Assembly: GCA_010909165.1 (NCBI GenBank)
Contig: MU008179.1
Location: forward strand, 1,028,710 to 1,092,709
Length of the DNA stretch: 64,000 bases
Source: Anthoceros angustus
Taxonomy: Eukaryota > Plantae > Anthocerotophyta
Reading direction: 5' to 3'
Below are positions 1 to 50,994 of this stretch, piece by piece. Position 1 is the stretch's first letter, and each line of letters starts with the position of its first letter. The notes under the pieces were generated by a model that searched no databases, was not told the origin of the DNA, and saw only the letters and a list, made by a program, of their open reading frames with translations. Position numbers and translations under genes: made by a program.

Positions 1-77
1 ACTTCCTTCACAAGGAGCAAAGGACTCGCGAGGTAGGGAGCGCAAGACACGATAATTTTACTTCACAAGCTCCCTCC

Positions 78-84
78 TTTTATA
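78..84 (-). promoter_or_regulatory. Putative main LTR TATA box (TATAAAA)
   Basis: CCCTATAAAAGGAGG on minus, ~0.9 kb before the LTR 3' end by alignment. The 5' LTR copy (~12477-12483) reads TACAAAA. Confidence 0.55.
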
Positions 85-456
85 GGGAGGTCCTCACATC
101 TGACCTCCCACAGCGCGCCCTCCGCCAAGCACTCCGGCCATGCCTCACTCCTTATTCTAGTGTATCCTATTGTCGACTTTAAGTTCGACATCCAAGCATC
201 TTGGGTGAAATTATTCTAGCAAATTCTACCTATGTGAGCCTTAATGGCTCTGTCAACATTCCTATCCAGCTAGTCAACACACCCTCTGGGTTGACAAGCA
301 TTAATACTGTCCTCCCTAAAGAAAAGTCTTCCCCTAAGCAATGAGCCCACGCCCAAGCTACCACCACCCTCTTCAATTACCTCTAGATGCCGTCGCACGG
401 TGATCCTACGGATGTAGGGCCACCCTCTACACCTCCTACGGACGTAGGGTCACTTC

Positions 457-1624
457 TTATGGCCCTACCGCCTCCACGCTCTCCACTGCGAGAAGGTCTC
501 CCGTGAGCGGATCTTGCTCCATGCCTTCCTCTTCCTCCTCCGAGTCATCCTCTACGGCTTGCTCATTCATTTCTTCCCATTCTGACTCATCTGACTCCAC
601 CGTCTCCGCTTGGGTCACAAGGTCCGCAGCCTTCAAACCTTCTGCTTCTAGCATCCTTCTATCATCACTGTGGGGGTGCCAACCTCTCCCTCAAAGCTCT
701 ACCCAGATCAGCCTTGATTCTAGCATCTATTGGCGAATTAACTCAGAGGTTGCGATATTTGTTCTTCAAGTCTTCCAAGTCTGCGGGCCACTCGCCCGTC
801 CACACTTCTCTTGCAAAGCCTCCCTTTCCACGCCATGCCCCACTTGTATGGACATAGCATGATACTTCTCCTCCGCATCATGGACGCGCCTCAACATCCT
901 CTTTTGCAAGGCATGATCGGCCCTGAACCTTCTCTTACGCACAACCATCAAGCGACGTACCATGTCCTCAGCTTTCTTGCGACTCTCTTCCTCTTGCGAG
1001 GCCCTACGATTAGCTTCACTCACAGCCCCCTTGGCTCCTTCCAACTCCGCTTGGATGGAGTCCCATGACTCTTGTAGGGTCTCCTTCTCCCTTCTCAATT
1101 CTCCTACCTCGAGGTCCTTGCCATTTAATAACTCATCCTTAGTCTCCGCAAGGCTCTGGACCTCCTTTACATCCTTCTTGGCCATCGCCATGGCACACAC
1201 CAATTGTTGGACTTGTTCTCGCATCCCTCTCTTCTCCAAGACCCATCCTTCCTTCTCCTCAACCTTCCTTTCAAGCTCCATAATCGCAATCCCCTCCTGA
1301 GCCTCCTCATTTGGTCTTCCATATACCTGTCGGATGTGTTGGGCTGTCCAGCACCCTGGATCAGTCCTTGCATCCCTATTTTCCAGTTCCTCCAGTTCCT
1401 GCCGTGGCATAGTGAAGTTTATGAAGCACTCCTCTATCATCTCCAAGTTGACATAGGCCCAGTGGCGGCCATACACCCATTGCAATTGCACGTTGGGTTC
1501 TCGCCTCCTGAATGCTACCAAGTGCCTAGCCTCCACATGCGGGGAAGCAATTAAATTCGCATCCCTCTCTTCTCCGGCTCCTAGCAACCAATTTGCCCTT
1601 CTTAGGTGCAGGCGCTTTCACCAT
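457..1624 (-). CDS. LTR-encoded accessory protein (WVYGR/NLE..EECF.N/DP.CWT N-domain, coiled coil, acidic tail), frameshifted
   Basis: ORFs 766-1587 and 457-654. Likely ATG at 1624 (MVKAPAPKKGK). The motif block is conserved in homologues at 13504, 26140, 47420, 59680 and 60420. Confidence 0.75.
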
Positions 1625-2394
1625 CTTGCACCTTCAAAATAACTACACAAACAATACAAGCTTGGGCACGCCCACGTGCTCGTTTCCACCTAGTTGTCAC
1701 CTCAGTGCCTACACACAATTGTGAGATTTCTTCACTCGCCACACAAGATCCACCAAGAGAGCAACTTCAGCCCCTTTTCCACTTACTTCCTCTTCACTCC
1801 ACAGTCCCACCTAGCTCAAACTTGGTGTCCTCACAACATACACCTCCTTACGCGCCCAAATCCCTCACTTGCAAGGTTCTGGGCACACACAAAAAATCAG
1901 CGCCCTTGCTCTCTTCACAGTCGTGCTTCAAATCCCTTCACACACAACTCCTTACGCACGCACACCACCTTCTCCTTGCACACACACGGCACCGCGTTCC
2001 CACCAAGTCCTTGCTCTAGCTTTCCGTGCATGCCCAAGCTCTTCCTCGCGATTCCTCACAGACTTCCTAGGTGCCACTCCCTACACACCCCGCTTGCATG
2101 GCCCTTTGGTAGTGACAGCAAAAACTCTTGATATAGGCCGTTGATTCCTTGCCATGTGGCACTATTTCCACCGTCCTCGATTTAGTAGCCCTACTTGTTA
2201 TAAACACCCTACACTACCTGCCTTACATATTTATGGATTATTATTCCTAATATACCCTATTTATCCTCAACCTTGCATATACCTTTTAACAACTTCCTAG
2301 GTTGAAACCCCTAATCTGAAAAGCTTGCTTCCCAAGTATCCAAGTATGTCGCGCCCACTGCTGCCCACGCTAGGGAGACACTCTCATGACACTC

Positions 2395-2890
2395 TCATCC
2401 TACCTACCTATCCAACTATCACCCTACTATGTAGGGTGTCACCTCGTCTACTATGTAGGGTCACCTGTCACCCTACACCTCCTTCTCCCTTCTCAATTCT
2501 CCTACCTACCTATCCAACTATCACCCTACATCTACCCTTGTAGGATGCACCTCCCCTACGGGAGTGCCATGCCACGTCCACTACCACCCTACACCTCCTT
2601 CTCCTCAAAGCATCCTCCCTATCTATGTAGGGTCACCTTTGTCACCTCGTCTACTATGTGGGTCACCTTTGTCACCCCCTACTATGTAGGGTCACCTTGT
2701 CACCTCGCCCCTACTATGTAGGGTCACCTTTGTCACCCCACGCCTACTCTATGTCACCCTACCTATCTATGTAGGGTTAGCTGACACCCCACGCGCCAAC
2801 TATCACCCTACATCTACCCTTGTAGGATGCACCTCCCCTACGGGAGTGCCACGTCCACTACCACCCTACACCTCCTTCGCGTAGGGTGCA
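2395..2890. repeat. Minisatellite of ~30 bp units (CTACTATGTAGGGTCACCTTTGTCACC) in the LTR U3
   Basis: Directly visible tandem units; the counterpart is at ~14750-15490. Confidence 0.9.
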
Positions 2891-3424
2891 CCACTCAAAC
2901 ACTCTCCCAATTAGCTCTCATGTGACTTCTGCAAATATAACAAGCTGAAACACCCCACACAAAAGGTGCCCCATCCCGGTACTGATCCACCCCTAGGACG
3001 CTTAACTCTGGAGTTCTTACATTCCATTGTCCAACACACCCAATTGGCTTGTGCATAACACTCATCAAGAATAAAATGAACTTATCCCTCGGTGAACTTC
3101 TCACGCCTCCACAACATCTCGTACCAACCCTCCTTGCTATCCATTTCTCCTCGCGGCCATCACACGGCCTCCCTTCACTTCACTTCACTTTCACTTGCAA
3201 ATTCCGTCGTGATGCACACCCGTGGTGATCTCTTCCCATGTTGCACCGCAACACCCTTCGTGGTCTTGCCTCTACCTAGATCTCTACTTGCACTCACTTG
3301 AGTCTGAGCTTCCACCAAGAAATACCCAGCAATTCCTTTGGCACTTTTCCGAGTTCGTTTTGATCCAAGTTTTGTCAACTCCAACCAAAAAAAATGAATG
3401 GCCCAAAGTTTTGCATTTCACATG

Positions 3425-3435
3425 CTCCCCTCCCC
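3425..3435 (-). other. Polypurine tract of element A (GGGGAGGGGAG)
   Basis: Lies 2 nt before the LTR TG and ~30 nt after the integrase stop at 3468. Confidence 0.85.
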
Positions 3436-3467
3436 ACTTGTTTGCGTCCTCGCAAACAATCTGCTTC

Positions 3468-4681
3468 CTACGGTGCAAAGTACTTCTTCACTTTCCATCC
3501 ATTCACCCTGGTAGGGAGTGGCTCCCCGTCTAGCTCCTTCAATTGTACTGAGCCGTTTTTATACACAGCCATGACCTCATAAGGTCCCATCCACCTCAAC
3601 CTAAGCTTCCCTGGGAAATCCATATATCGGCTATCATAGAGAAGAACCAAATCCCTGGACACAATAGCACGCTCTACGTAACTTCCGTCATGTCTATCCT
3701 TCCTAAGCTCACGGATGCGTTGGGTCTCCTCCAAAGCATCCTCCTATCTTCCTCATGCCCAATGAAAGACTCCAATCTAGCTAGTGACTATCCTCTCTGA
3801 GACATCGCTCATCCTCCATGATCCGAGGGTAGGTACCTCAAATTCAACAGGCATCACGGGAGACATCCCATATGTTAAATAATAGGGAGTCTTCTTGGTG
3901 GTCACCTTCTCTGCTGTCCTGTAAGCCCATAGCGCTGAATGTAGCTTAGTGTCCCAATCGTATATGTGAGTCACAGTTACCTTGGTCAAGATTGTACACA
4001 ACAGCCCATTCGTTTTCTCCGTCAAACCATTCGCTTTGGGATTGTAAGGAGTTGTCTTTCGATGCGAATGTTGAAGTAGGTGGTGAGAGTCTCGATCACC
4101 GAGTTGAGGAAATGAGTTCCCCTGTCACTGACCAACTCCAAAGGACATCCATACCTTGTTATAATGTTCTCAAAGAGAAACTTTGCTACTGCAGGTGCGT
4201 CGTCCTTCCTTGTTGCTTCAGCCTCCACCATCTTTGTACAATAGTCCGTAGCCACCAGGATATATTGCTTCCTCGTCCATCGTGTGGGTGGCTTGATTGG
4301 ACCTACAAAGTCTATGCCCCACTTCTCGAAAGGTGCCAAAGGTAGGATATAAGTAAGAGGCCATTGTGTTGACAAAGTTGGCCTCCCAACCCGTTGGCAT
4401 GCATCACACCTCCGAACAAAATCCCACACATCCCTCTGCATCGTGGCCCACCAAAAGCCTGCACCTAGGATCTTCTTCATGGTAATTTGTACCGAATAAT
4501 GGCCTCCAGCCTCTTCTGCATGCAAAGCTTCTATGACGAGAGTAGCTTCCTTCACTCCCAAACAACGTCGGATCTTCTCATCCGGACCAAGCTTGTATAA
4601 GACCCCATCTCTTAGACAATAAGGCGCGCTTGTGAAGAAAACAGCACGCCCTTCCCTAGACAAACCATCGGCATGATCCAT
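3468..4681 (-). pseudogene. pol: Gypsy integrase (HHCC zinc finger, rve core, GPY-type tail), frameshifted
   Basis: H..GGHY...C..CQR, PFEKWGIDFVGP, LVSDRGTHF, ALWAYRT, KLRLRWMGPY. Confidence 0.95.
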
Positions 4682-5207
4682 GCTCTAAGAATTCGTACCT
4701 CACCGTTAGCAAATACCGTGGACACGGAGTCCTTCACGTCGACCTCCTCTTCCATGTACACCTCGTTGCCCTCTAGTTTGCCCACCAGGTGCCGTGGTCC
4801 ATGCCGCCTCAACTTGGCTTGCAAACCATCTGTCCAGAGTCCGCTGCGCCGTGCTGCACCATCCGCACACTCATCTCGATGCCAGCCGCCTCTTCATCTC
4901 TATGCTCCTAGTTTCATGACCAGCCCCAGACCGTGCTCTAGCTGCGATCTCTTCACATTGCTGCATTTTCCGGGTAGTCACTTCTACAGTCGACCGTAGA
5001 CCTGCCGACGCTCTTTCCTGCAGCTCCACTGCAAGCACTCCCCGAGGTGTGGTTTCTCTACAATCCTTCTCCGTGTACACCACCAATGCTGAGCTTCCTC
5101 TGCTCCTAGATTCCAATGCACAAACCTCCTCTGCACACCATTTTCGTGTGCCGCCTCTCACTCCTTCAAATTGCGATTTCTCACATTTCTCCTCCTCCAA
5201 CGTGTGG

Positions 5208-7900
5208 CCTCCCTTGCAGCCCTCTTGCTCACCCTTAAAGCACCTCCTCCTCGCACCCATATTGCGCCACTTCACCTCGAACTCCTAGATCGTCCTCCTC
5301 CAGTTGTCACAAAAATCCTTTCCACAGGCATTTGGTCCCCTTGCAACACCTCTTGCTGCACAACCTCAATCATTTGTACTTTGCTCCGTCCTCCTCCCAA
5401 GCTGCGTGCTACCAACTCCTCGTCGGAAATCGGTCATCGTGGCCACAATCCGTTTTCCAGTTTTCGGGCGGAAATCGGCATTCATATGTTGCCTCCACCT
5501 GGTTTCTACATCATAATCAAACTCTTGCAGCAGGACCCACCTAGCAATCCTTCACGATAAATCGGCTTGTTCACAAGGTACTTTAAGCAAAATGATCAAC
5601 ATGGAGCGTCACCTTACAAGCAAGCGGTAGTGTCTAAACTTCTTACACAGTATATGATGCCAAGACCTTCCCTCTCGGTGGTTGAATAATTTCTCTCGGC
5701 ATCCGTAAGTTGCACTGACATAGAAAATTGGATGATCCGTTTCTTCTCGTCCTTACGGCTTAAGACGGTCCCAATAAGCGTGTGGCACATCTACGTATAC
5801 ATGGAATGGTTTTCCCAATCGGTGGTTGTAGCGTTGGTGCGTTCACCAAGCTATCCTTTAAGCTGAAAGGCTTCACCTTGCCTCTGTTCAAAGGGCATGT
5901 CCTTCTTGGTCAAGCTGCGTCAACAAGGCCGCCTTCTTGGCAAAATCCTTGATGAATCTTCTATAGTACCAAACCTATGAAAGCCTTTCTTGACCGTTTG
6001 TGGCGTCCATCTCGCTATCACCGACACCTTTTCCTATCTACGCAAACCCCTCACTTTGAAACTCGATGTGCTAGTAAGATTCCTGTCATACCGAATAACA
6101 CTTCCTGGATGAAGTTTCATGTTCGACTCCTGCACGGAAACATTGTCTCCCTTGCAGCCCTCTTGACTGCTCACCCTTAAAGAGCACACCCCGCTCCTCT
6201 TTGCACCCATATTGCTGTTCTTTCACTTCACCTCGAACTCCTAGATCGTCCTCCTCCAGCAAATTCTGCACAAAATCCTTTCCACAGGCATTTGGTCCTT
6301 CTGCTTGCAACACCTCTTGCTGCACAACCTCAATCGCATTTGTACTTTGCTCCTGATCCTTTCCTCCCAACTGTGCTACCAACTCCTCGTCGGGAAATTG
6401 GTCATCAGTGGCCACAATCCGTTTTCCAGTTTTCAGACGGGAAACAAAATCGGCATTCATATGTTGCCTCCCTGGCCTGGTTTCTACATCAAAGTCAAAC
6501 TCTTGCAGCAACAGGACCCACCTAGCAATCCTTCCTGATAAATCTGGCTTGTTCACAAGGTACTTTAACGCAAAATGATCAACATGGAACGTCACCTTAC
6601 AAGCAAGGTGTAGTGTCTAAACTTCTTACAGTATATGATGCCAAGACCTTCCCTCTCGGTGGTTGAATAATTTCTCGATCCGTAAGTTGCCCGCAGATAG
6701 AAAATTGGATGATCCGTTTCTTCTCGTCCTTCCGGCTTAAGACGGTCCCAAAGCGTGGCATACATCTACGTATACATGGAATGGTTTTCCCAATCTGGTG
6801 GTTGTAGCGTTGGTGCGTTCACCAAGCTATCCTTTAACTGCTGAAAGGCTTCCTGCCTTGCCTCTGTCCATTCAAAGGGCATGTCCTTCTTGGTCAACTG
6901 CGTCAACAAGGCCGCCTTCTTGGCAAAATCCTTGATGAATCTTCTATAGTAACCTACCAAACCGATGAAAGCATGCACCTGCTTCACCATTTGTGGCGCG
7001 TCCATCTCTGCTATCACCGACACCTTTTCCTTATCTACCTGCAAACCCCTCACTGAAACTCGATGTGCTAGTAAGATTCCTTCTGTCATACCGAAATAAC
7101 ACTTCCCTGGATGAAGTTTCATGTTCGACTCCCTGCACTTCTGGAAACATTGACTCAGGTGCTCCAGATGCAATTTCCTTCTTCCAAACACTCAAAAATC
7201 ATCTAGGAAGACCTCCATGAACTTCCTCAAAAATCTCGGAATATGGCATTCACTACCCGCTGAAAAGTAGCAGGGGCATTGCACAACCCGAAGGGTAACT
7301 TTGAATAAGCGTAGGTTCCCCAATCCGTTGTGAACGTTGTCTTGTCTGGTCCTCCTTCCTCAGAGAGATCTGGTTGTAACCCGAATAACCATCCAAGAAG
7401 CTATACATCTCATGACTGCCACCGTGTCCAGCACGCTGTCCATGAAAGGCAAGGGATGGTGGTCCTTCTTTGTGGCCTCGTTAAGCTTCCTAAAATCTTG
7501 ACACACCCGCACTTTCCCTTGCTGTTTCTTTGGCACAATCACGATGGGTGCCACCCACTCGCTTGTTAGTACCGGATAAATTACGCCTGCCTCCAAGTAC
7601 TGGTCTAGCTGATCCTTGACCACCATAGAGTACTTAGGATTCAGCCTATACTGCTTGATCCTTACTGGGTACTGCCCTCCTTCAAGTCTATTCGATGTAC
7701 CCCCAGTTCTTCGGGAATTCCTGTCATGTCAGTAATCTTGAAAGCAAATATGTCTACATATTCCCTAAGCAACCTACAAAACTCCTCCTTCTCTACCACA
7801 TCTAAGTACCTAGAAATCTTGACTGCTTTGCTAGGTTCTAGCTCTAAGTCTACCAGATCGGATCTACGTGGGTACCCTCACGGACTACTACCTACCTGCT
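5208..7900 (-). pseudogene. pol: Gypsy reverse transcriptase and RNase H, with a ~1 kb local duplication
   Basis: SEWVAPIVIVPKK, VCQDFRKLN, VFLDDF (7196-7213), GYYRRFIKDF, DHFALKYLV, GRIARWVLLLQEFDF. Confidence 0.95.
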
Positions 7901-8085
7901 TCACGATACTTCATCGGAAAATCTCGATCATATGCTCTCCCTTTCCAAAAGGCTACCCTTCCACATGCTCCACCTTGAATCATCTTCTACGGTAGCTTCT
8001 ACTTGTAGGCGAGTACACCAACTTGGGTTTTATTTCCACCACTTTGAGGGTCCACGATAAGCCGGTCACTACCGAAGAGCTTACC

Positions 8086-9114
8086 CTATACCTCTGAAGT
8101 ATATCCATCGGACGGGAGTTCGGTTTCCCCTTCGTAGGGTGCCTTGCTCCATGACACAAAAGCTACCTCAGGTGGCCCTACTCTACGGGACTTAAAGGTG
8201 ATACCACTACGACCAAAATCGAAAACACACGCAGTTCCGTACAACCAAGGTCTGCCTATCAAGACCTTGTAGCCTAAATCTGACACTGGTCTCATGACAA
8301 TGTAGGTAAGATAGAACGTGAGACCTCCAATCACGGTTGGCACATTTCTCAACACTCCTAACGGTTTCCTTCTGGTCTGGTCCGCCATCCTCAAGAATAC
8401 CCGAATCGGACTGAACTTGGTGAACCCAAGGCGATGCGCCGTCTCCTCTGTCATCAAGTTGACCCCTGATCCCGAATCTAACGGCACATTGGGCACCAAG
8501 CACCCTGCAATTTCGATTTCAATTTCTGGTGCCCCCAGATCAACAAGCTCAACCACGTTTACCTCCAGATCCATCGGCCTCCTTCGCGGCTCCACAGGCT
8601 CGGGAATTCCCCTGATCGCCTCCTTCACAATTTTGCGGGATCTTGGACTCACCGCAAGAAGCTGCCTCAAGCTGACCACAAATTCTCGGTCAAGCAATGC
8701 ATCGGCGAAACTGGAGATCTTATCTGACAAGGTTTCCTCCCCGTTTGCAGCCCCGATGCTGGTCGGCTCCGACCTTATTTTTAAACTGTCCACACCTATG
8801 GCCCCTCCTATCGACTGGGTCTCCATAGCCGGCGGATTCACAACTTCGGGTTCCGCAACCTCTACCTCCATCTTTGCATGCTGAGTGAGCCTTCTTAGCT
8901 CATCCTCCAACATTGCTGCTACTTCCCTACTAATGTCAGGAGGAAACACCTTTCCTCCCCCTCCTCCGCTTGTTGGTAGGTCGCCCTCCCAAGCACCAGT
9001 AGTTCCCTCATGGACCTCCTCATTTTCCTCCTCCTCTGCCAAATTCCGGCTTCCACGAGTCTCCGGTGGCCAAGGTGAGTCCTCCCTCACCTTCCTCTTC
9101 TTCCTCTCGCTCAC
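8086..9114 (-). CDS. pol: Gag-pol spacer and aspartic protease
   Basis: VPLDSGSGVNLM catalytic motif; VLIGRPWL. Confidence 0.9.
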   Translation of the reverse strand: MSERKKRKVREDSPWPPETRGSRNLAEEEENEEVHEGTTGAWEGDLPTSGGGGGKVFPPDISREVAAMLEDELRRLTQHAKMEVEVAEPEVVNPPAMETQSIGGAIGVDSLKIRSEPTSIGAANGEETLSDKISSFADALLDREFVVSLRQLLAVSPRSRKIVKEAIRGIPEPVEPRRRPMDLEVNVVELVDLGAPEIEIEIAGCLVPNVPLDSGSGVNLMTEETAHRLGFTKFSPIRVFLRMADQTRRKPLGVLRNVPTVIGGLTFYLTYIVMRPVSDLGYKVLIGRPWLYGTACVFDFGRSGITFKSRRVGPPEVAFVSWSKAPYEGETELPSDGYTSEV

Positions 9115-9248
9115 GCACGGTCCTTCTCCCGTCGCTCGGATCTAGTGGTGACCTTGGCCACCAGCAACCCTTCTTCCTCACTCATTTCTCCCTCATATCC
9201 TTCTTCCACAATCCCAGAGTACACATTGTCTCCATCCAGAAGATCGAA

Positions 9249-11418
9249 TTATGCTTCCACCTTCAAAACTGGCGTTGAAGTCACAGTGATAGCAGTTTCG
9301 GGGTTGGAAGGTGCTCCTTCTGTTGTAGGCTCTGTGAACCTCACTCCTGGACGTGTCGGCACTACTCGTGGCACCCCTGAACACCTCGGATCTCCAGCCT
9401 TGTGTCCCAGTTCTTTGCACACTTGACAGAAAGGTACATACCCCATTTGTCTCTTTGGTTCTGGGCAATCATTGGAATAGTGACCAGGTGCTCCACAATT
9501 GTAACAACATCCCGGTGGAATTGCTGTTGGTCGCTGAGATGGTTCTGGTCTCCATGGACCTAGCGAGGTAGGCCGAGACGCGTACCTCATGATTGGCGGT
9601 GCTGCAGGCTGGTAGGTTGCCCTCATCGACTGAGGCGGTCGACCTCCAGTGACTGCCTGCACCTGGTAAGCCTCATCCACATACCAATAATCACCGGGCA
9701 TGACCGGCTCCACATGATTCACTGCATGGCGTGGGGCTCGTATACATTCCCGGTTGGTGTGCCCAGATTGGTGACAAATCGAGCAATACACCAACTGTCT
9801 TGCAGGGGCGGGCGATCTACGTGTGGCTTGATTCTTCACAGCCTTGACTTCCAACTCCGTTAATCGCTTGGTCAAGGCTTCAACCTGACCCGCAATTCCT
9901 CCTCCTGCAGTGGACGTTTCTCCCTTCTCCATCCGCCGCACTGTTTTCCCTTTTCTTTCCTTCTCCAGTGCGCGCTCAGCCTCCTCTTGCCTCTTCTTAA
10001 CCTTCTCTAGATCTTTCCTCATCCGTCGTTCGTAGGCTTTCTCAGATTCTTCATCGGATGACGAGTTTTCCTGGGTACCACTCTCCTCACTCTCGGAAGA
10101 TGAAGATGAAGATGAAGAGGGGGAGGAAGAAGAAGAAGAAGACAAACTAGATCTCCTGGACCCCTTCCTCTTCTTATGACTCCTTCTCTTTTTCCTCCTC
10201 CTGCCCAACTCTGCCGACTCCCACTCTTCTGCCAAGCGGATTGCTCCAGCCAAAGTTTTAGTCCCTCGTCGACAATGTACCTCCATTTTCCTTGATAGAC
10301 CGCTCACAAACCAATCCAGCGCTTGCTCCTGCGAGTAACCCGATGTGGGAGGATTGCCCGGAGTCACAGGTGCACACTTGGGGACTCGATCCAAATATCC
10401 ATAGAACCGTTCAACGTAATCAAACAATGACTCCCGTTTCTTCCTGCGAAGGGTTCTCAACTTTGCCAAGGTGTGGTGGGCACGAGCCCTCGGCGATTGA
10501 GCGGTCTTCAAAGAATCCCAATCTCACAGGCGCACTTGCCCGTAAGTTCGACCAGCCTTTGGGCATGCCCCTCGGCCGGGAAAATTCGCAACCGATCAGC
10601 CACGGTGTCCTCCAGATTAGCATGAGACACATGCTCAAAAGTGCGCACAAATGCCTCCGCATCGTCGCCCTTCTTCTTCTCCCCAAACTTGACATATTGT
10701 TGCCGACTGTGAGGTTGAGGCAAACCTCCTCCCCCTCCTGCAGTTCCACTCATGTTACTTGACCTGATTGCACCTGACGAATTCAAGTTACCTCCTCCTC
10801 GTGGCGCGCGATCAACCAGCGTTCCCTGGCGGGATGTCGGCACAAAGTCTCGAACACGGCCTGGGTGAGGTGTCCCCTCGGACGCGTCCACCAAGGTAGT
10901 AAGTCGAGGTAATCCGGTCAAGACTAGCTGCAAGATCTTGACCACACTTGGAATTACTACTCATCCGTCCTCCCTCCCTCTTCTTCCTCTGAAGATGAGC
11001 TAGATCCACCACGGCTACGGGGTTCCCAATGTTGAGAAGGCCCAGCTTCCACAAATGAAGCTCTTAAATTCAACCCGTATCCTCGTTCATGCACCTCTTC
11101 TTCACGTTCGCCTTGCAGCACCAATTCTTCCTCGACAACCTCCTTTCTTTCGCTATCCGTGACCTCGTCGCCCTCTTCTTCACTAGCAGCAACCTCCTCC
11201 TCTTCTTCGCTCACAGCGCCCTTGCAAGCAAGCGCAAAAGCGGCTTCTTCCTCAATTGCCCGTGCCTCTTCTTCCTCTTGAATTCGGCGTGCTGCAGTTG
11301 CAGCACTTTCTTCTCGTAATCGTTCCCTCCTTGCAGCTCGTAGATCTCTAGCAGAGACAGGTGGAGGCGATCTCCCTCGTTCAACTCTTATCCCCTTCCT
11401 CCTGCTAGACATCTGCAA
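9249..11418 (-). pseudogene. gag: Gag with three CCHC knuckles and an acidic N-terminal region, frameshifted
   Basis: ORFs 10957-11418, 10508-10945 and 9249-10511; CSICHQSGHTNREC, CYNCGAPGHYSNDC, CQVCKELGHKAGDPRC. Confidence 0.9.
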
Positions 11419-11566
11419 CCATCCTCATGACCCTTCAACACACAGCTGTCAATATGGGAAACCCCCCTGCACGTGCCTCCATCAGCGTGGGAGAGTTCAC
11501 CAACAACAATCAACTACCAGAGAGATGGGTTTCCCCCCCACACCGCACGTCTATCAAGGCACAAGA

Positions 11567-11584
11567 TCCCCGGCAACGGCGCCA
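11567..11584 (-). other. Primer binding site, tRNA-Asp type (TGGCGCCGTTGCCGGGGA)
   Basis: Follows the LTR end CACA plus 4 T; this is the PBS sequence typical of Athila-lineage elements. Confidence 0.88.
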
Positions 11585-12840
11585 AAAATGTGGTGGGCAG
11601 ATCCCGGGGCTTCCGAGATTCACCCTGTAGCGTCCACACTTATCCCACTGTCGCTTAGCACGTTGGGTTTCGTCCCATGAGATCTTGGTTGTCAGCCGAG
11701 CGCTGAAGGTTCAACCCATGCACACATTTATTTACAACCACCCAGCCCCTCAACAAGCAAGGCATCATCCTACTTCCCTCAGCGGCTACACTACTTGCCT
11801 TGAAAATTCACCAATTCTGCCTACAACGACACGACACTATCGTAGGCCATGCCTCACAAGCGTGGAATCACCGTGGGCACCAGGGGACCCCGATCCGCAC
11901 CGCAATGTTATCCTCCCGGCGGGGCTAGCTCCTTACCCTTTGGAGCACGTTCTGCTTGTGATTTGGGACACCTCCTTAGGCTCGCCTTGGGCCTTGGCTA
12001 TGATCTACACGCTAAGTCCCTCCTCAATATTCGGTTCCTCTACCATCATCAACGCTTTTCTTCCCTACACACCTACTTACTCTCCTTCCATGACCTCCTA
12101 CTCTAATACCACTCTAGCTTATTGATTCCAACTCGCCCTTACGCGCCTGGGGTCCGTCTGAATCAACAAGTTTTCCTTGGGCGGTTCTTGTGTAGTTCAC
12201 GGACATGAGAACCTCCAGTCTTTCCTGCGGTCTACCCTCAAGAGAGTTCCTTGAGCATCGCCACACACTCAAAGCAAAGCAATTCACACAGCAACCATTC
12301 ACAAGGGGAGCAACTCGCAGAGACACTGCGGAGCAGGCCCTCCGCCAAGCACTCGACCGCAAACTCCCTCTCTACCGGGCCTTCGTTAGCTTGCGGCACG
12401 AACTTCCTTCACAAGGAGCAAAGGACTCGAGGTAGGGAGCGCAAGACACGATAATTTTACTTCACAAGCTCCCTCCTTTTGTAGGGAGGTCCTCACACAC
12501 CTCCACAGCGCGCCCTCACAGCCTGCCTCACTCCTTATTTTAGTGTATCCTAGAATTTTTAAGTTCGACATCCAAGCATCTTGGGTGAAATTCTATTCTA
12601 GCAAATTCTACCTATGTGAGCCTTAATGGCTCTGTCAACATTCCTATCCAGCTAGTCAACACACCCTCTTGGGTTGACAAGCATTAATCTGTCCTCCCTA
12701 AAGAAAAGTCTTCCCCTAAGCAATGAGCCCACGCTCCAAGCTACCACCACCCTCTTCAATTACCTCTAGATGCCGTCGCTTGGGTGATCCTACGGATGTA
12801 GGGCCACCCTCTACACCTCCTACGGACGTAGGGTCACTTC

Positions 12841-13972
12841 TTATGGCCCTACCGCCTCCACGCCTCCACCTCGAGAAGGTCTCCCGTGAGCGGATCTTGC
12901 TCCATGCCTTCCTCTTCCTCCTCCAGTCATCCTCACGGCTTGCTCATTCATTTCTTCCCATTCGACTCATCGACTCCACGTCTCGCTTGGGTCACAAGGT
13001 CCATGACCTTCAAACCTTACGCTTCTAGCATCCTTCTATCATCACCGTGGGGGTGCCAACCTCTCCCTCAAAGCTCTACCAGATCAGCCTTGATTCTAGC
13101 GGTCCTATTGGCCGAATTAACTTTGTAGGTTGCGATATTTGTTCTTCAAGTCTTCCAAGTCTGCCACTGGGCCCCCCACACTTCTCTTGCAAAGCCTCCC
13201 TTTCCACGCCATGCCCCACTTGTATGGACATAGCATGATACTTCTCCTCCGCATCGTGGGGCGCCTCAACATCCTCTTTTGCAAGGTATGATCGGCTCGA
13301 ACCTTCTCTTCGCACAACCAGCGGCGTACCATGTCCTCGGCTTTCTTGCGACTCTCTTCCTCTTGCGAGGCCCTACGATTAGCTTCTCTCACACCCCTTG
13401 GCTCCTTCCAACTCCGCTTGGAGGAGTCCCATGACTCTTGTAGGGTCTCCTTCTCCTTCTCAATTCTCCTACCTCGAGGTCCTTGCCATTTAATAACTCA
13501 TCCTTAGTCTCCAAGGCTCTGGACCTCCTTTACATCCTTCTTGGCCATCGCCATGGCACACACCAATTGTTGGACTTGTTCTCGCATCCCTCTCTTCTCC
13601 AAGACCCATCCTTCCTTCTCCTCAACCTTCCTTTCAAGCTCCATAATCGCAATCCCTCCCCGAGCCTCCTCATTTGGTCTTCCATATACATCGGATGTGT
13701 TGGCAGACCCCTGGATCATCCTTGCATCCCTATTTTCCGATTCCTTCTCCTGCCGTGGCATAGTGAAGTTTATGAAGCACTCCTCTATCATCTCCAAGTT
13801 GACATAGGGCCAGTGGCCATACACCCATTGCAATTGCACGTTGGGTTCTCCAAGAACTGCCGGAATGCTACCAAGTGCCTAGCCTCCACGTGCGAAGCAA
13901 TTAAATCTCATCCTCTTCTCCTGGCTCCCTAGCAACCAATTTGCCCTTCTTAGGTGTAGGCGCTTTCACCAT
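12841..13972 (-). pseudogene. Second copy of the LTR-encoded accessory gene (in the 5' LTR)
   Basis: ORFs 13504-13839, 13117-13392 and 13076-13315 match 457-1624. Confidence 0.8.
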
Positions 13973-15164
13973 CTTGCACCTTTAAAATCACTGCACAAAC
14001 AAGACAAGCTTGGGCACGCCCACGTGCTCGTTTCCACCTAGTGGTCACCTCAGTGCCTACACACAATTGCGAGATTTCTTCACTCGCCACACAAGATCCA
14101 CCAGGAGAGCAACTTCATCCCCTTTTCCACTTACTTCCTCTTCACTCCACAGTCCCACCTAGCTCAAACTTGGTGTCCTCACAACATACACCTCCTTACG
14201 TGCCCAAATCCCTCACTTGCAAGGTTCTGGGCACACAAAAAATCAGCGCCCTTGCTCTCTTCACAGTCGTGCGTCAAATCCCTTCACACACAACTCCTTA
14301 CGCACGCACACCACCTTCTCCTTGCACACACACGGCACCGCGTTCCCACCAAGTCCTTGCTCTAGCTTTCCGTGCATGCCCAAGCTCTTCCTCGCGATTC
14401 CTCACGGTGCCCTAGGTGCCACTCCTACACACCCGCTTGCATGGCCCTTTGGTAGTGACAAAAACTCTTGATATAGGCCGTTGATTCCTTGCCATGTGGC
14501 ACTATTTCCACCGTCCTCGATTTAGTAGCCCTACTTGTTATAAACACCCTACACTACCTGCCTTACATATTTATGGATAATTATTCCTAATATACCCTAT
14601 TTATCCTCAACCTTGCATACAGACCCTTTTAACAACTTCCTAGGTTGAAACCTGCCTAATACGAAAAGCTTGCTTCCCAAGTATCCAAGTAGGGTGTCGC
14701 GCCCACCTCCGCCCACGTAGGGAGACCAGGGGAGACACTCTCATGACACTCTCATCCTACCTACCTATCCAACTATATCCAACTACCGTCCGTAGGGAGT
14801 GTCACCCTACCTGCTACTTCACGACACTGTCCGTAGGGAGTGTCACCCTACCTGCTACTTCACGACACTCCTACCTGCTACTTCACCCCTACCTGCTACT
14901 TCACCCACCGTCCGTACTGCCCATGACCTATCTATGTAGGGTCACCTTTGTCACCCTACGTCTACTATGTAGGGTCACCTTTGTCACCCTACGTCTACTA
15001 TGTAGGGTCACCTTGTCACCCCACGTCTACTATGTAGGGTCACCTTTGTCACCCCTGCCCACTATGTAGGGTCACCTTTGTCACCCTACGTCTACTATGT
15101 AGGGTCACCTTTGTCACCCTACGTCTACTCTATGTCACCCTACGCCTACTCTATGTAGGGTTAG

Positions 15165-15370
15165 AAGAAGAAGAAGAATTTTATTTGAGTCCACTAAGGA
15201 CGGATTTCCGTCATGGGACTTGGTACTTGACAACTTGTACCATGGTGTGCCTAAGCTACTTGCACCAAGGGCATCCACTCCTTTAGGCACCCCATCTAAG
15301 CACCGATCTAGGCTCGGGATGCTTAATCACGGCGTTCATAAATGTGTGTCCATTTGGCCTAAGCCATTTG
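15165..15370 (-). mobile_element. ~205 bp retroposed insertion (SINE or 5'-truncated LINE-like) ending in AATAAA and a (TTC)n tail
   Basis: Absent from the 3' LTR, which reads GGGTTAG-CT-GACACCCC at ~2774-2790. Minus strand ends AAATAAAATTCTTCTTCTTCTTC. Confidence 0.6.
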
Positions 15371-16236
15371 GACACCCCACGACGCCAACCATCACCCTAC
15401 ATCTACCTTGTAGGATGCACCTCCCCTACGGGAGTGCCATGCCACGTCCACTACCACCCCTACACCTCCTTCGCGTAGGGTGCACCACTCAAACCTCTCC
15501 CAATTAGCTCTCATGTGACACGCCTATAATGTGAAACACCCCACACAAAAGGTGCCCCATCCCGGTACTAATCCACCCCTAGGACGCTTAACTCGAGTTC
15601 TTACATTCCATTGTCCAACACACCCAATTGACTTGTGCATAACACTCATCAAGAATAAAATGAACTTATCCTCGGTGAACTTCTCACGCCTCCACAACAT
15701 CTCGTACCAACCCTCCTTGCTATCCATTTCTCCTCGCGGCCATCACACGGCCTCCCTTCACTTTCACTTGCAGCCCCACTGCAAATTCCGCCGTCGTGAT
15801 GCACACCCCGTGGTGATCTCTTCCCCATGTTGCAGCCCACCTGCAACACCCTTCCTGTGGTCTTGCCTCTACCTAGATCTCTACTTGCACTCACTTGAGT
15901 CTGAGCTTCCACCAAGAAATACCCAGCAATTCCTTTGGCACTTTTCCGAGTTCGTTTTGATCCAAGTTTTGTCAACTCCAACCAAAAAAAAATGAATGGC
16001 CCAAAGTTTTGCATTTCACACCGGGCTCCCTCTAGAGTGTAGTCCGTAGCTCCTCCGGAGTGTGCTCCAGAGTCCTTCGGCCTACTCCGGAGTCCCTCGA
16101 TCTACTCCGGAGTGCAGTCCGGAGTGCTCCGGACTTATTTCTTCCTTTCCGCCTTATTTTCTACTCCACCCCTACGAAAAAAAACAAAACTTAACTCATT
16201 TCCTACCCCATGGGAGAGTCCGCGGTCCACACCATG

Positions 16237-18029
16237 TTATCTCCCCGCCCTTCTCCGATTTGGTCGCCTGGCCCTTCGTCCTCTGCTGCTAAATCCATGG
16301 GCCCTCCTTCCTCGTTGCTGGTCTGGTGAATCCTCCCATAAACTCTCCACCGTTTTTCCATGAACCCAAGTCCCAGCTCTCTCACCAATTCTCCAGCTCG
16401 GACCCTCCATTAGTCCATATTGGGCCATTGGGCTGTCGAAATTTCCGCTGCGGCCTTGGGCGCCATGCTCCTGCAAAAACCTCACTGCTCACGGCGCCTC
16501 GAATTGCTGATAGCTCGCCTCAGAATCTCCAACTTGGTCGGTCCCCCAGGGTTTCTTCCTTCCCAAACTCGCGAGCTTCCCGCCACTGTGGCCGCCTTCT
16601 TGACCTCGATCTGAGCTCTGTTACCTGTCGGAATTGCAGGAGCTACCAGGTTGCCGCGCGCGATGCCTTCCGAGTTCCCTTAGGGTTATATTTCCCCGAA
16701 ACTCCTCCTACCACGGTAGGAGTTCCTACCGGGGCCGTTTCTTCTTCCTCACCCCTTCCTGGGGTGATTCTCTCCCCCTGTGAAGCTCCTCCCGCTTCAC
16801 TCGCTTCTTCCTGGTGCGAAGTTCCTTCACCCCTGTTGCTTGGGACACTCTCCGCTCGCCTACCTGCAATTTCTCTTGCTTGATAGGTCCTTGTCTTTTC
16901 GCCTCCGTCTTTAAGAATTCAACTCTCCTCTTGGCGGCTCCTATGTCTACCTTGCTGAACATCTCCCCTATGCGCAGCATCTCTTCCAACATGTCTAAGT
17001 GTCCTTTCTTACCCCCGGGAGACTCAGGGCCTTTGCCTTGCTCATGGGATCTTACATCCCTTGCTTCCCTATGATGAGCTCCCCGCTCATCACTTGGTGG
17101 GGCAACTCTTCCCACCGTGACTCCATCCGCTCGCCCACCTAACGGGGCCGGTTGCCTTCTTATCTCCCGCTTGGGAGCTTCCAAACCATGACTTCCTTTC
17201 CCTCCTACCGTGGTAGGAGGTGCTCCTACCACCGTAGGACTACTTCCTACTGTGGTAGGACTAGTTCCTACCACCGTAGGTCTTGTCATGAGAGGGCGAG
17301 AGGGGTCCCAAACCACTGTGGGAACACCTCCCACCGTGGTGATCTCTTCCCACCGTGGTAGGATCTATCCTACCTTCCATCTCCGCATCTTCTGCGGTCC
17401 AAACTTCAAATCCCCCTACAACTTCTCCTTGCAAGTCCTCCTGCACATCCTCTGGCCTATCTTTTGGAGGGATTCCTTCCAGCAACAATGTTCCAGGTGG
17501 TGCTGCGGGTACCTCCTTTAGCTGCAAAGCACCAAGCAATCCCTGTCCCTCTCCCGACTGTAAGTATACAACGTTAAAGGGATGCTTGGAATCATCCAAC
17601 TCCTTACTTGTGAGCAGCCCCTCTACTTCCCACAAATGCACTAGATAAGTGCTAAGATAGCACGGCCGTGGACTACCTTTATCCGACGCGTTGGGTTTCA
17701 GCAACTTTTCCCGGTGGTAGATGTATGCTTCATACATGATGAGCCCCCAATCCGGCTTCACTCCTTGAGTGATCTTCCATAGAAAATGGAGGAAGGTGGT
17801 GCTGAAGTATGACACTCTCGGATTGCTCACCAGGTCCAAAACAATCCTTGTGAACAATCTTTACTTGGGCTCCAATATCTGGTCCGTCCGCCAACCGTTC
17901 TTGGATTTAGCCTTCATTCCCCCTTGCATAAGTGTGAGGGCTCCCTTAGGAAGGTCCACCGTTGATGCACGCTTGCCTCCACTTGTTCCTTCCATCAACG
18001 TGATCCCGCTATCCTTGCTATCCAGCCTG
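16237..18029 (-). pseudogene. C-terminal half of the element B accessory gene
   Basis: RLDSKDSGITLMEG, KNGWRTD, KITQGVKPDWGLIMYEAY, CYLSTYLVHLWEVEGLLTSKEL; matches 47690-48110. Confidence 0.75.
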
Positions 18030-19073
18030 ATCCTACCGCCGTAGGAGTAACTCCTACCGTGGTAGGAGAAGGGGGAAAACGCCTACCATGGTAGGAGGGT
18101 GTCCTACCACGGTAGGAGATGGGTTGGTAAGGAAAGTAGCTTATGTTTTAGGCAGGATAGGCTTGCTGTACATAGGGTCTTTTAGTGGACTAGATAAATA
18201 GGCCAAAATAGGTAATTAAGAAATTAGAGGCTAATTTTTAGTAATTAGAAATTAGGAAAATAAGGGAAAATGGTATTTTAGCATAAGGGGATTAGGAAAC
18301 TAGCATCAACGGTGGGAAGGGTGCCACGTGGCACACATCCAAGGGCAGGATAGAATGGTAGTTACTTTTTTTAACCCTTGGGTGACTTATAAAAGTGGCT
18401 GCAGGTGCCTGTAGGAGGCCATATCTCAGAAACTCAACAAGACAGCCTCACTGCAGGAAGGCGCCGCCACATCGCAAGCTTCCCAAGGCCCCCATACAGC
18501 AACGCGCCGTACACGCGCCCGTGTTGAGGAGGAGAAGAAGGGCGCGAGCCCAACAAGGCGGCGGAAATCCGCCAGGCGCCCAAGAGAAAGGGCAGGAGGA
18601 AATTGAGGAAGAGGAGAAGGGAGAAGAAGGTTGGGGCGCAACCCAACACTTGCCAAGCTCGTGAGGGTGCCTAGGAGGGTGGAGCGTGGTAGGATTGCTA
18701 GGAAAACGTGAAGGAAGAGCTCCTAAATTGCTGTGGCAGGTGTAAGAGTCCATTGGAGAATTTTGGTGAGCTTTCTCTTGTAGGAGAAATTGGGGTTTTT
18801 GAGGACGTCAAGGTGTAAGGGCTGCAGGAGGAGAGCAAGGACAAGGACCTTGGTGCTGTGATCAGGAGCAAATCGCTGAGGAGGAGAAACGTTTGCAAGG
18901 ATAGGAAGCTGGCAAGTGCTGCAGAAATTGCAGGAGAAGCATCTCTTTTCTTCAATTTCACGCAAGTACTAACCAAGGAGGCCATGACCAAGCCTACCAT
19001 GACCAAGGGCAAGGAGGTAGTTGCCAAGGAAGGAGCGTCCACCAAGGGAGGTGGCGCAAGAGCGGGTAAGAAG

Positions 19074-22000
19074 TGATGAAATATGACCTATTTAGGGCAC
19101 TCTTCACTAGGGCACCTAAGACTATTAATTAACTTAGTTCTTAGGGCTTTAGGTAGTCTATTGAGTAGTTAGTTGTTACAACCACTTAGAGGTTAGAACT
19201 ACTTATGGTTACAACCACCTTATGGTTGTAACCACTTAGCCTATATAAAGGCTTTGTACTTTCTATTATAATCAATGCATACAACTCTTTTTGTGCAAAG
19301 CTTTCTACTATCTGCTTGCTATGTTTTGCTACCTAGAGCAGCTATGATTCTCATCATGGTATCAGAGCATTCTGCTCTCTATTTGCATTGGGCAACTTGA
19401 CATGCTGATCTACTCTTCTTCTTCATCTTCTTCTTCATTTCTTTTTAGAAGATGCATAGATTCTTTAGATTGCATGTCATAGATTGTTGTCATGTTTGCA
19501 GGTTCCTTAATCTTCAATAATGCACACACAGTGCATCCAATCCTTGCTTCAACGCGATGGACCCCTTCAATCCTCGCAAGCAAGGCTATTGGAAGAAGAT
19601 TAAGGCTGCAAGACAAGAGATAGAATATAGGAATGCAAAGATTAGAATTGCTAGGAAGTCTAGTAAGATAGTAGGAGATTCCATACTTATTGCTAACTTC
19701 ATTGGCTCTATTCTAATCAAAGTAGAAGATCAAGGGAGGCAGATAGAAATTGCTAGAAGAAACTTGCTTACTATCTTTAGTTTAAGTCAAGTGAAAGCAA
19801 TTGAACTCGCTCTTGATCATATCCCAAATCTACAAGTGTCCTCTTCCTCGCTGCTCCAATGCAGTTCACAACGCAACAAGCATAGAGGAGTTAGCAAGAG
19901 AAGTGCGTGATCTCAATAAGCGCCTCCTTGAGCATCGATCCAAACATGCCGAGTGTCTTCATCACAAACTTTCCCTTCTTTCGACAAACACGCCAAGAGA
20001 GAAAAGGTTTCTTCTTGTTTTGCTCCTTGCCTGATGTTCTGCATGATGATGAGGAAATGCGAGGCGCTGCACTCTAAGTCGCAATGACCACCGCAATGGC
20101 TGGTTCCGGACGTGACGACGATCGAGAGAGAGAGGAGAGGAAGGATCCACCCAAAGATGAAGTACGACCTTCCGTGGTGAATCACAACTATGGTGAGTTT
20201 AAGGAGAAGGACAGATTCAATGGGCGGCGTGACGTTTGGCGCTGCGAATCGTGCACTTTTCCGCAATCGAGACCTATGGGACGTTGTAAGTGGGTCCACA
20301 CCAAACCACAGCTAGAGCAAAGAAAGGGACGCCAGGATGAAAAAGCTCAAGACCTCGATCGGTGGACTAGCACTTAATATGGTAAGACAATGCGTCAAGC
20401 AAAACTTCTAAAGATGTGGGATCACCTTGCTCTTATATTCTTCAAGAGATGTGATGAGTATGATGACGCAACTTCTTCAATCAAGATGAAGGAATCGAGT
20501 CGAACACCATATCAACACTTTCCGAAGCTAGATCTCAATATGAAGCCGCCACCAACACCTCCGCCTCTCGAACTTGTTGCATTCCTTGTTCTCTTGATTT
20601 CCCTCCCACCCTCCTAGACCATTTCTCACCACACGTGGTTCGACAAGCCCAAAAGAATTGCGGCTGGCGAAGACCTCGACATCGTGTCGCAGAACTCATC
20701 GGAGCCATGATTCGAGGAGTCCAGCTTATGAGCCCAAGTCCAGCCGGTGAATGTCTGGAAGAGGCGAGGAAGAGGCGGCAAAAGTTCTCCTTCCAATAGA
20801 CGCTTATTCCACACCAAACAAATATCATGGCGAATCCAACTCTTCCACACCTTCCGTGGTAACAAAAGAGTGGAATTATTTGTAATTGGTGCGAATTCCT
20901 AATCACATGGAAAAGGATTGTAGAAAGAAGAAGAATGGGAACCTAGATCGAGGCTCCGCTCATGTTGCTTCGAAGAAACACTCTTCATCAACAACACGTG
21001 TGCTCACTATTTGCCTTGCATCCTCTAAGCCGGCCACCGTTTATTGGTACCTGGACAGTGGAGCAACATCACATATCTGCTACAACAAAGACTCCTTTGG
21101 GTCATACACCCCAGCCACAGGACATCCGACTGTTCTCCTGGGCGGTGATCACACCCTTCCCATAGCGGGCCTAGGTTCTGTTGTCCTCAGATGTGATTCA
21201 GGTCAGACTCTTCATCTTCACCAAGTCCTCCATGTTCCTCCCATGTGCAAAAACCTAGTGTCAGCCGCTAGTCTTTGCAAAGAACACAACATGTAGGTCC
21301 TTTTATATGCCGATAGCTGTTCCCTTTCCTACCTCAAGAATAGAACACACATATCTCTGACCGGCATCTTAGAAGATGGACTCTATAGATTGTCGAAAGT
21401 AGGAGCCACACATTCGTCAATGTAGCCTCCCAACATTCTCGCACAACCAACACACACGATGCTCGGCATTGTAGATTAGGTCACCTAATAGTCGGTTACT
21501 CCAAATGTCTAGAGACAACAGATAGAACACCTGTCTCTCCAAGGTTCACAACTTAGATTGGTGCGAAACTGTGTCCTCACAAACGTCACGAACCTTTCAA
21601 AATCCATCTCCTCAAAGGGCCAAGTCACCTTTAGAGATAGTACACACAGACATTTGTGGACCCCTCTCTACACCCTCCTTAGGGTAGTAGATACTTCTTA
21701 ACTTTCACCGACGACTATTCCGCGCCTCCCTACATCCTCACCCAAAAGAGTGAAACTTATCGTTTTCAAGGATTACATGGCATGGGCGAAAGGCTTACGA
21801 TCACAAACTCAAGACCTTACGTTCCGACAACGGTGGAGAGTTTACATCTCATAGATTTGCTGAATTTTGTCGATAAGGCGTAGCTCAACAATTAAGTGTA
21901 GTATACACTCCTCAGCAAAATGGCGTTGCAGAAAATAAGAATCTCCGCCTCCAAGAGATTACAGTTGCTGTTAACACAAGCTAACTTATCCAAAGCTTAT

Positions 22001-26096: not shown

Positions 26097-26675
26097 AGAA
26101 GTCTAAGGCAGGAGGATCGGACTCCGGAGGGTGGAAATTTGACATGCCGCAGTTCACATGCTATGCAGGCCAACTGTCCTCTAAGGACCTTTCGGACTTT
26201 CGACCTTGGGCAGCAAAAGAGAATATTCAGCTAGAGTGGGTGTATGGGCGACATTGGTCTTACACCAACCTTGAATTGATAGAGCAGTGTTTTGCTAATC
26301 TGCAACAGACGAAAGAGGAATTGGGTGCCTTACCAGATAGGAACGCATGGACGGATCCACGATGCTGGACCATAAGGAGCATACGACAGGTACTTCCTAC
26401 CCTTTCCTACCATGGTAGGAGTTTCTCCTACGGTGGTAGGACACCTCCTACCACTCATGTAGGTTATATTTTCTCCTCACCAGAAGGTTGTTTTGACTTG
26501 TTTCTTTTTCCCCGCATATCCTCTCTGCCTTCCCGACATGGTCCTACAACTCCCGCTCAAAAAGGAGCAAAAAATTTCCTTGCATGTCTTCACCAAACCA
26601 TTTCTAGCAAAAGAGTGTGGGTCTGTTTCAAAACGAACTCATTTAAGCTAGTTGCCCAAACTTTTGCATTCCACA

Positions 26676-29476: not shown

Positions 29477-29629
29477 CACCGACAAGAGGTAAGTCCACGT
29501 CGCACCAACGCCGTGAGGAGGAGAGGGGTCCTGAGCATACAGCCATGGGAGGAGAAGTGTTCCGGGGCAAGATGAATCCGGTATGTAAGAAGGTCCGTGG
29601 GCGTAAGACGACTCAGAAATGCCCCACTT

Positions 29630-29810
29630 GATGTCCGGACCCAGAGGAATGGACCCGAGGGGTCTGACTCGGAAGTGAGGACGGACTCGTCCCGACCGGA
29701 GTGAGGACGACCCGAGGTCCGGACTCGGAAGTGAGGACGACCCGAGGTCCGGACCTGGAGGACGGACCCGAGGTCCCACTGAAGCGGACGGACCCCAAGG
29801 TCCGTGACTC
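29630..29810. repeat. ~30 bp tandem repeats (GGAAGTGAGGACGACCCGAGGTCCGGACTC) in an LTR-like GC-rich relic
   Basis: Direct repeats are visible and related to the units at 31085-31200. Confidence 0.75.
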
Positions 29811-50990: not shown

Positions 50991-50994
50991 TTTG

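Follow-up and report, generated by a model that had tools for sequence, protein, structure and literature searches.

A Ty3/gypsy retrotransposon of Anthoceros angustus with an accessory gene inside its 4.4-kb long terminal repeats and a possible VANC-like anti-silencing function

A 64,000-nucleotide stretch of the Anthoceros angustus genome (assembly GCA_010909165.1, contig MU008179.1, positions 1,028,710 to 1,092,709 of the forward strand; hereafter the window) contains a Ty3/gypsy retrotransposon, element A, with long terminal repeats (LTRs) of 4.4 kb that enclose an accessory gene. The window holds a nest of LTR retrotransposons in decay, and the assembly is rich in indels. Element A lies on the minus strand, has a total length of about 17 kb and shows the order gag, protease, reverse transcriptase (RT), RNase H and integrase between direct repeats accompanied by a primer binding site (PBS) and a polypurine tract (PPT). 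A chromodomain after the integrase is absent and the integrase frame stops 45 bp short of the LTR, placing the element among the non-chromoviruses. The long-LTR architecture with an internal gene is very probable. The fuller reading, to which we assign a probability of about 0.5, is that the gene was likely captured into U3 and encodes a VANC/PMD-fold protein countering silencing at motifs of its own LTR.

The LTR start of element A (TGTGAAATGC) is found at both 16020 and 3422. The LTR end (...CCCACCACA) at 11589 is followed by four T and then by the PBS TGGCGCCGTTGCCGGGGA at 11584, a sequence identical to the tRNA-Asp PBS given for the Athila element FIDEL (PMC2844528). Gag begins at 11412, and a purine tract (3439-3425) lies between the integrase stop (3470-3468) and the LTR start at 3422. 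The two repeats align across all 3422 available bases, with 3182 matches, 104 mismatches and 120 gaps. In local alignments the repeats differ by 1.0-2.1% substitutions, which is an upper bound on age because sequencing errors are counted in. The DNA upstream of 16020 is unrelated and ends in CCCGG. The original prediction had placed the PPT and the LTR-start TG just past the integrase, had run the repeat from 16020 to the PBS edge, and had put the accessory open reading frame (ORF), an AT-rich block and a minisatellite inside a duplicated LTR; the boundaries are borne out, and the last three features are each present in both copies.

The conserved LTR start of ~22 nt recurs at 26675 (-), 46257 (+) and 58717 (+) in two diverged families, B and C, with a homologous gene behind each. 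It adjoins unrelated DNA at 16020 (the tail of the B gene), 26675 (Copia integrase sequence) and 46257 (remnants of a further family, D); at 3422 (A) and 58717 (C) it comes after the integrase and the PPT. A two-block PPT model, trained on seven loci outside the window with the window sites held out, put site 58683 of the window in first place and site 3457 in second among 127,880 positions. In L004, a locus from outside the window, the start behind the integrase (TGTGGGAGC) and the end in front of the PBS (GCTCCCACA) make up a perfect inverted repeat of 9 bp, and the family ORF sits behind that start. The three independent insertion junctions at the same TG, the PPT model and the L004 termini uphold the long LTR over a tandem of elements with LTRs of ~1.1 kb, the outcome that would have overturned the prediction. 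No second PPT backs an LTR of ~1.1 kb: a relic tract suggested by the purine-rich look of the DNA near 12.7 kb was rejected as unsupported at rank 362 (486 in the 3' copy) of the same 127,880 positions.

Three families would need to have been cut at exactly the same TG if the layout were a tandem of ordinary elements or an assembly artefact. The A repeats, 12.4 kb apart, bracket a complete gag-pol with its PBS and are not alike, since one has a nested insertion and their minisatellites are dissimilar. With the L004 termini as independent confirmation, such an origin is hardly credible, even though the indel-rich assembly holds many stitched duplicates, family C occurs twice head to tail, and no target-site duplication (TSD) is visible, the 3' LTR end of element A lying beyond the window. 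What speaks against the architecture is that both C copies pass from the gene directly into the gag N-terminal region (51050 and 62490) with neither LTR end nor PBS, which may reflect deletion or an assembly skip, as the head-to-tail repeat may reflect an assembly loop. To this is added the depth of DNA run X1, which shares 0.14 of the window words and whose depth is no copy number: 945-1423 on the terminal ~1.3 kb of the LTR compared with 34-216 on the gene body and 6-542 in internal bins. This excess fits many elements with only a short LTR core in common. None of the 12 X1 rows listed out of 506 has loose ends at 16020, 3422, 11589 or ~12.7 kb. Neither a transcript nor a solo LTR was seen, and no RNA run was listed as containing the sequence. 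A 4405-bp contig of run X2 (record 9) pairs an A-like core promoter (50-333) with B-like upstream sequence (16704-16853), hinting that the families share an LTR core and differ in the U3 cassette.

Comparisons outside the window showed that two layouts occur in one clade. Among named sequences the nearest are liverwort ones: the best integrase matches are Riccia sorocarpa proteins (60-62% identity). The integrase tree was built from 40 hand-picked rows (the window, 20 of 120 listed proteins and 19 of 88 loci, with no REXdb references). The window falls with five Riccia rows (support 96/89), and this group belongs to a clade of 22 rows (100/100) that also takes in Calypogeia rows and loci L001-L008 and stands apart from the clade containing Tanacetum proteins, which we take to be Athila-like. 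Defined by identity (47-62%), nine clade loci are found among the best 80 metagenome loci. The accessory domain follows the integrase in eight of these nine, L003 stopping 344 bp past the integrase, and in 0 of the 79 other loci; five of the eight were in the domain profile and three were not. Six loci (L004-L009) have the pre-PPT motif, PPT and TG 14-89 bp past the integrase frame, ahead of the ORF. L002 is a collapsed contig of circular form. Its integrase is followed by a purine tract that lacks the motif and ends in TAG, then come a 745-codon frame and only then the full motif, PPT and TG, with a ~1-kb LTR and an Asp PBS downstream of the ORF in the ordinary Athila-like layout; being a collapsed circle, it cannot prove which purine tract is used. 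The two tracts that flank the extra ORF (L002:3765 and L002:6572) mark this locus as a candidate intermediate on the gene's way into the LTR. The claim that the arrangement is a lineage trait stands for families A, B and C and extends to relatives outside the window, but, as L002 shows, it is not universal in the clade.

A shift of plus-strand priming from one side of the gene to the other best accounts for the occurrence of both layouts in one clade, and it probably went in the direction that brought the gene inside the LTR. Athila elements carry two PPTs. Alternatively, the long LTR could be a minority derivative produced by occasional priming at the upstream tract, in which case most active relatives would have their gene located between pol and an LTR of ~1 kb, and the gene would decay once inside the LTR. 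The complete motif, PPT and TG after the L002 ORF, the X1 depth excess, the X2 contig that matches A only at 50-333 before turning B-like, and the half-deleted A gene would all suit this alternative. However, the full motif and PPT stand ahead of the gene in three diverged window families and six outside loci, long ORFs are intact in L005 and L006, no second motif is present in the 876 bp after the intact 853-codon frame of L005, and element A has no significant second PPT; a minority derivative is accordingly improbable.

Placement of the gene in U3 is suggested by the putative main TATA (87 in the 3' LTR, 12486 in the 5' LTR), which lies downstream of it. If the gene instead lay in R or the 5' leader, the AT-rich block upstream of it would be the main promoter. 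This block is the most AT-rich stretch of the LTR and contains TATAA, and in the 5' LTR the downstream TATA has the form TACAAAA. In the 3' LTR, by contrast, a canonical CCCTATAAAAGG stands downstream of the gene. It would also be very unusual for an R region to measure about 2.8 kb, and this placement is very improbable. For the U3 placement, the AT-rich block would be the gene's own promoter.

The genes of families B and C span about 720-730 codons and comprise a basic N-terminus, a domain of ~220 residues, a low-complexity linker and a coiled-coil tail. Comparisons between families gave pS (the proportion of synonymous differences) of 0.73-0.96, near saturation, versus pN (nonsynonymous) of 0.15-0.33 in four comparisons of 45-80 codons each, whereas three control frames (shifted-frame and antisense) gave ratios of 1.3-2.6. 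This comparison of substitution rates across copies, which had been suggested as a check, shows that the accessory gene was under purifying selection in the past, and is not evidence of present function. Two further observations weigh against the fuller reading: every window copy is broken, and the A gene keeps the N-half of the domain fused to the coiled-coil tail while missing the C-half that B and C have. The 283-codon frame in the A 3' LTR (1617-769) crosses the junction of this internal deletion. Decay is here indistinguishable from sequencing error.

The accessory family comprises 230 matches among 2526 candidates and has neither a name nor a Pfam entry. The core of the window B protein aligned with the family profile at an hhalign probability of 95 (E 2.4e-8), or 90 (1.5e-6) with a deeper alignment. 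The domain of L006, modeled from an alignment of 69 sequences, reached a pLDDT of 93. Among 48,161 representative chains of the PDB, VANC21 is the sole match to this model at Z>=5 (Z 7.1, a value within the range that the tool calls common; r.m.s.d. 6.4, 202 of 221 residues aligned), and the next has Z 2.1. A second VANC21 entry gives Z 6.8 with an r.m.s.d. of 4.0 over 193 residues. The named ESM Atlas neighbours of family member P0166 are PF20167 (Transposase_32) and PF03078 (ATHILA ORF-1), the Athila extra-ORF families, with scores of 0.89-0.90; they share about 150 features, fewer than the 170 usual for true members of a family, and provide a lead. Taken together, these results indicate that the accessory protein is probably a remote relative of Athila extra-ORF proteins with a predicted VANC/PMD fold.

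Several results weaken this assignment. The link over the N-half, though collinear, is weak (hhalign probability 11, E 0.003). The window pieces match the family hidden Markov model (HMM) at E 0.1-0.9, with a reversed control at 0.24, and neither they nor their relatives match any Pfam family, PF03078 and PF20167 included, above the curated cut-off. Foldseek puts VANC21 at rank 22 (E 2.5, template modeling (TM) score 0.44), the other listed rows having TM 0.20 or less, and the fold is taken from a relative with about 19% identity to the window protein. The window half-domain model was too poor to judge the fold by (pLDDT 50), and its fold search gave generic helical matches with VANC21 not among them. 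A PDB sequence search with the accessory family found no match, and an ESM Atlas search with the C ORF gave no usable match. No homolog of the window pieces was found among 789 candidates of longer proteins; viral contigs yielded no locus with the integrase and family profiles, and neither metagenome nor viral contigs yielded one with the window-family alignment. A phmmer search with the B core returned 44 matches that were rejected, as all lie on one short motif with N-termini like those of unrelated repeat proteins. The best family-HMM match in the window is at 40168-40581 (E 0.004), within family D (39345-46256), which is inserted in Copia RT sequence and contains a short, repeatedly duplicated homolog of the accessory-gene domain.

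A candidate target is repeated within the LTRs. The palindrome CCTAC-N4-GTAGG has 28 matches with <=1 mismatch in the window compared with 1.28 expected, a number reached in 0 of 100 shuffles. All 16 exact copies are inside the 20.1 kb of LTR segments (4 in A, 11 in B and 1 in C), with none in the 43.9 kb outside. The copies in B show 21-bp spacing, and the half-site CCTAC occurs at 4.6-13.8 per kb in LTR segments versus 1.7 elsewhere. VANC21 is reported to bind a 9-base motif tandemly repeated in its own element and to remove methylation, and VANC proteins to bind short motifs that form tandem repeats within their own elements (PMC5735166). VANC and MAIN are described as structurally homologous (PMC13547354). 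PMDs are reported in Gypsy elements, and counter-silencing has been proposed as the role of those encoded by transposable elements (TEs) (PMC5418596, PMC8616336).

By analogy, the following mechanism can be proposed. Plus-strand priming would have moved to the purine tract ahead of the gene, capturing the gene into U3. The protein would be made from the internal U3 promoter, and the full-length form, a predicted VANC/PMD-fold DNA-binding factor, would bind the CCTAC-N4-GTAGG arrays in its own LTR and keep the LTR active against silencing. Since both ends receive U3, every insertion would bring along the gene and its target array twice, and promoter, gene and poly(A) signal would all survive in a solo LTR, so that the cassette may be autonomous in every solo LTR. 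The half-domain copy of element A, its gene deleted internally, would either rely on full-length copies of the B or C type or interfere with them.

We place this self-targeted anti-silencing role slightly below even odds. The palindrome was chosen post hoc, 11 of its 16 exact copies lie in B and one in C, some fall in coding sequence, and PMD-fold proteins such as MAIN are described as promoting silencing (PMC5418596, PMC8616336), all of which tells against the role; because of MAIN, the fold does not settle the direction of the effect. Loci L004-L009 repeat TCCGGA-type words instead, counted with no shuffle control. With the long LTR and gene both real, the protein could have another job, such as a transcriptional activator, an integration-targeting or particle-associated factor, or a MAIN-like self-limiter acting through silencing. 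Function cannot be read from a common fold, MAIN has the fold of VANC and is described as silencing TEs (PMC13547354, PMC8616336), and what the extra ORFs of plants do is described as unknown (PMC7264820). Such a job is nevertheless unlikely: selection has kept the gene, the LTR-confined repeated motifs parallel the arrangement in VANC and VANDAL, and a counter-silencer would benefit the element more, as proposed for TE-encoded PMDs (PMC8616336).

Element A resembles the Athila clade in its tRNA-Asp PBS a few bases past the LTR, the missing chromodomain and a sense extra ORF downstream of the integrase. However, its PPT and LTR start precede the ORF, which is thereby in both LTRs, its accessory protein has no sequence-level Pfam match to the Athila families, and its integrase is in a clade separate from the Tanacetum proteins. 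The REXdb lineages Phygy (moss) and Selgy (club-moss) share the non-seed-plant setting and a polyprotein that fills nearly all of the internal region. Phygy differs in having a tRNA-Trp PBS, a 4-bp NCGN TSD, a length of 7.7-10 kb and no extra ORF listed, in contrast to the Asp PBS, about 17 kb and ORF of element A; Selgy has a tRNA-Ala PBS and 4.4-6.7 kb. Among the left flanks, on which the comparison with NCGN was made, CCGG (A) fits and AGCT (B) and CGGA (C) do not. Among non-chromoviruses, plant LTRs can reach about 5 kb. Diaspora has a PPT 128 bp past pol and a 2.5-kb LTR but is reported without another long ORF, and the extra ORFs of Ogre, unlike this one, are described up- or downstream of the polyprotein; no statement that places them in the LTR was found in the literature searched. 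MMTV sag and other U3-encoded retroviral genes are in both LTRs and are kept in solo LTRs, although sag is an unrelated protein of an animal retrovirus. VANC21 and the PMD proteins MAIN and MAIL1 have in common with the accessory family the fold predicted for its core domain, a conserved domain ahead of variable and coiled-coil regions, and short repeated motifs in the DNA of the element itself. VANC21 differs in being encoded by VANDAL21, a Mutator-like DNA transposon, rather than by a retrotransposon LTR, and the identity is 11-13%. VANC is described as dicot-specific and the PMD as angiosperm-only (PMC13547354, PMC8616336). No paper reporting an LTR-internal ORF in such gypsy elements, or a VANC fold in a bryophyte retrotransposon protein, was found in a search that left most subscription journals and the REXdb element table outside.

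The features of the window are collected in Table 1. Element A itself is inserted in the LTR of family B, a segment of which (~18030-26392) is inverted, with one end in a palindromic minisatellite and the other in the gene. The minisatellite copy in the A 3' LTR (2420-2790) carries an array different from that of the 5' copy. The ~213-bp nested element of the 5' LTR has loose ends at 15163 and 15375 and very high depth in run X1; its (TTC)n end makes it MITE- or SINE-like (a miniature inverted-repeat or short interspersed element). The RNase H region of element A is present twice (5209-6149 and 6147-7156). Between RNase H and integrase lies ~800 bp of extra frameshifted, charged-looking coding sequence (4670-5470), apparently also in C (about 56900-57500); it is not present in the Riccia polyproteins, and its longest ORF gave no RNase H match of the kind expected from the additional RNase H of Tat. 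Adjacent duplicates of 0.3-1.9 kb with 78-96% identity occur at 5209-7156, 39644-45568, 48203-51058, 53891-56783 and 59570-61068. The three measured are indel-dominated (1.7-2.1 gap openings per substitution), typical of a noisy long-read assembly. The region 29500-34700 contains one or more further decayed, GC-rich elements with minisatellites (29633-29810 and 31100-31205) and AT-rich blocks, possibly further LTR cassettes. No tRNA genes were found in the window.

Table 1. Coordinates of element A and of the neighbouring families in the 64,000-nucleotide window
Feature	Position	Strand	Remarks
Element A 5' LTR	16020-11589	-	4432 bp, TG...CA; about 4.2 kb minus nested insert
Element A 3' LTR	1..3422	-	Cut by window edge
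Element A PBS	11567..11584	-	TGGCGCCGTTGCCGGGGA; tRNA-Asp type
Element A gag (zinc knuckle), protease, RT, RNase H, integrase	3468..11412	-	Frameshifted
Element A pre-PPT motif and PPT	3423..3457	-	Motif GTTTGCGAGGACGC; PPT touches LTR start
Accessory gene, A 5' LTR	12841..13972	-	ATG 13972, last stop 12841; broken by indels
Accessory gene, A 3' LTR	457..1624	-	ATG 1624, last stop 457; open frame of 283 codons 1617-769
AT-rich block	14420..14680	-	TATAA at 14542; putative accessory-gene promoter; 3' LTR copy near 2200
Minisatellite, A 5' LTR	14788..15156	-	33- and 41-bp units rich in CCTAC/GTAGG
Nested high-copy short element	15163..15375	.	Only in A 5' LTR
Putative main TATA	12475..12486	-	CCCTACAAAAGG in 5' LTR; CCCTATAAAAGG at 87 in 3' LTR
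Putative poly(A) signal	11727..11732	-	AATAAA
Family B LTR	16021..26675	-	Start 26675 within Copia integrase DNA; interrupted by element A at 16020
Family B accessory gene pieces	18984-19071, 26097-26392, 18028-~16200	+, +, -	
Copia element	19072..26096	+	Nested in B accessory gene, within inverted part; TSD AGAAG
Family C first LTR start and gene	46257..51050	+	ATG 47308; left flank unrelated
Family C second copy	58683..62490	+	LTR start 58717 with gene behind it; integrase followed by pre-PPT motif and PPT

The function of the extra ORFs of plant retrotransposons is a long-standing question, to which VANC-like, sequence-specific anti-silencing would be a specific and testable answer; the same LTR supplies a candidate target motif, and natural relatives that are intact exist for such a test. 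The two layouts within one clade suggest a route of an accessory gene into the LTR. The predicted fold suggests that VANC/PMD proteins, described as angiosperm-only, occur in element lineages related to those of liverworts. A wider proposal, which we regard as rather unlikely, is that a non-seed-plant Ty3/gypsy clade moved a VANC-fold anti-silencing gene with its binding array to U3, turning solo LTRs into trans-acting counter-silencing cassettes, and that the fold of VANC, PMD and Athila ORF1 is a retrotransposon invention predating flowering plants. In practice, annotation would take coding LTRs of 4-6 kb and their solo copies for host genes, or LTR finders that allow only short lengths would pass over them. 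If the anti-silencing role is true, solo-LTR formation, the main deletion route of the host, would leave behind counter-silencing cassettes, and the leftover repeats would likely keep a gene that aids the escape of the family.

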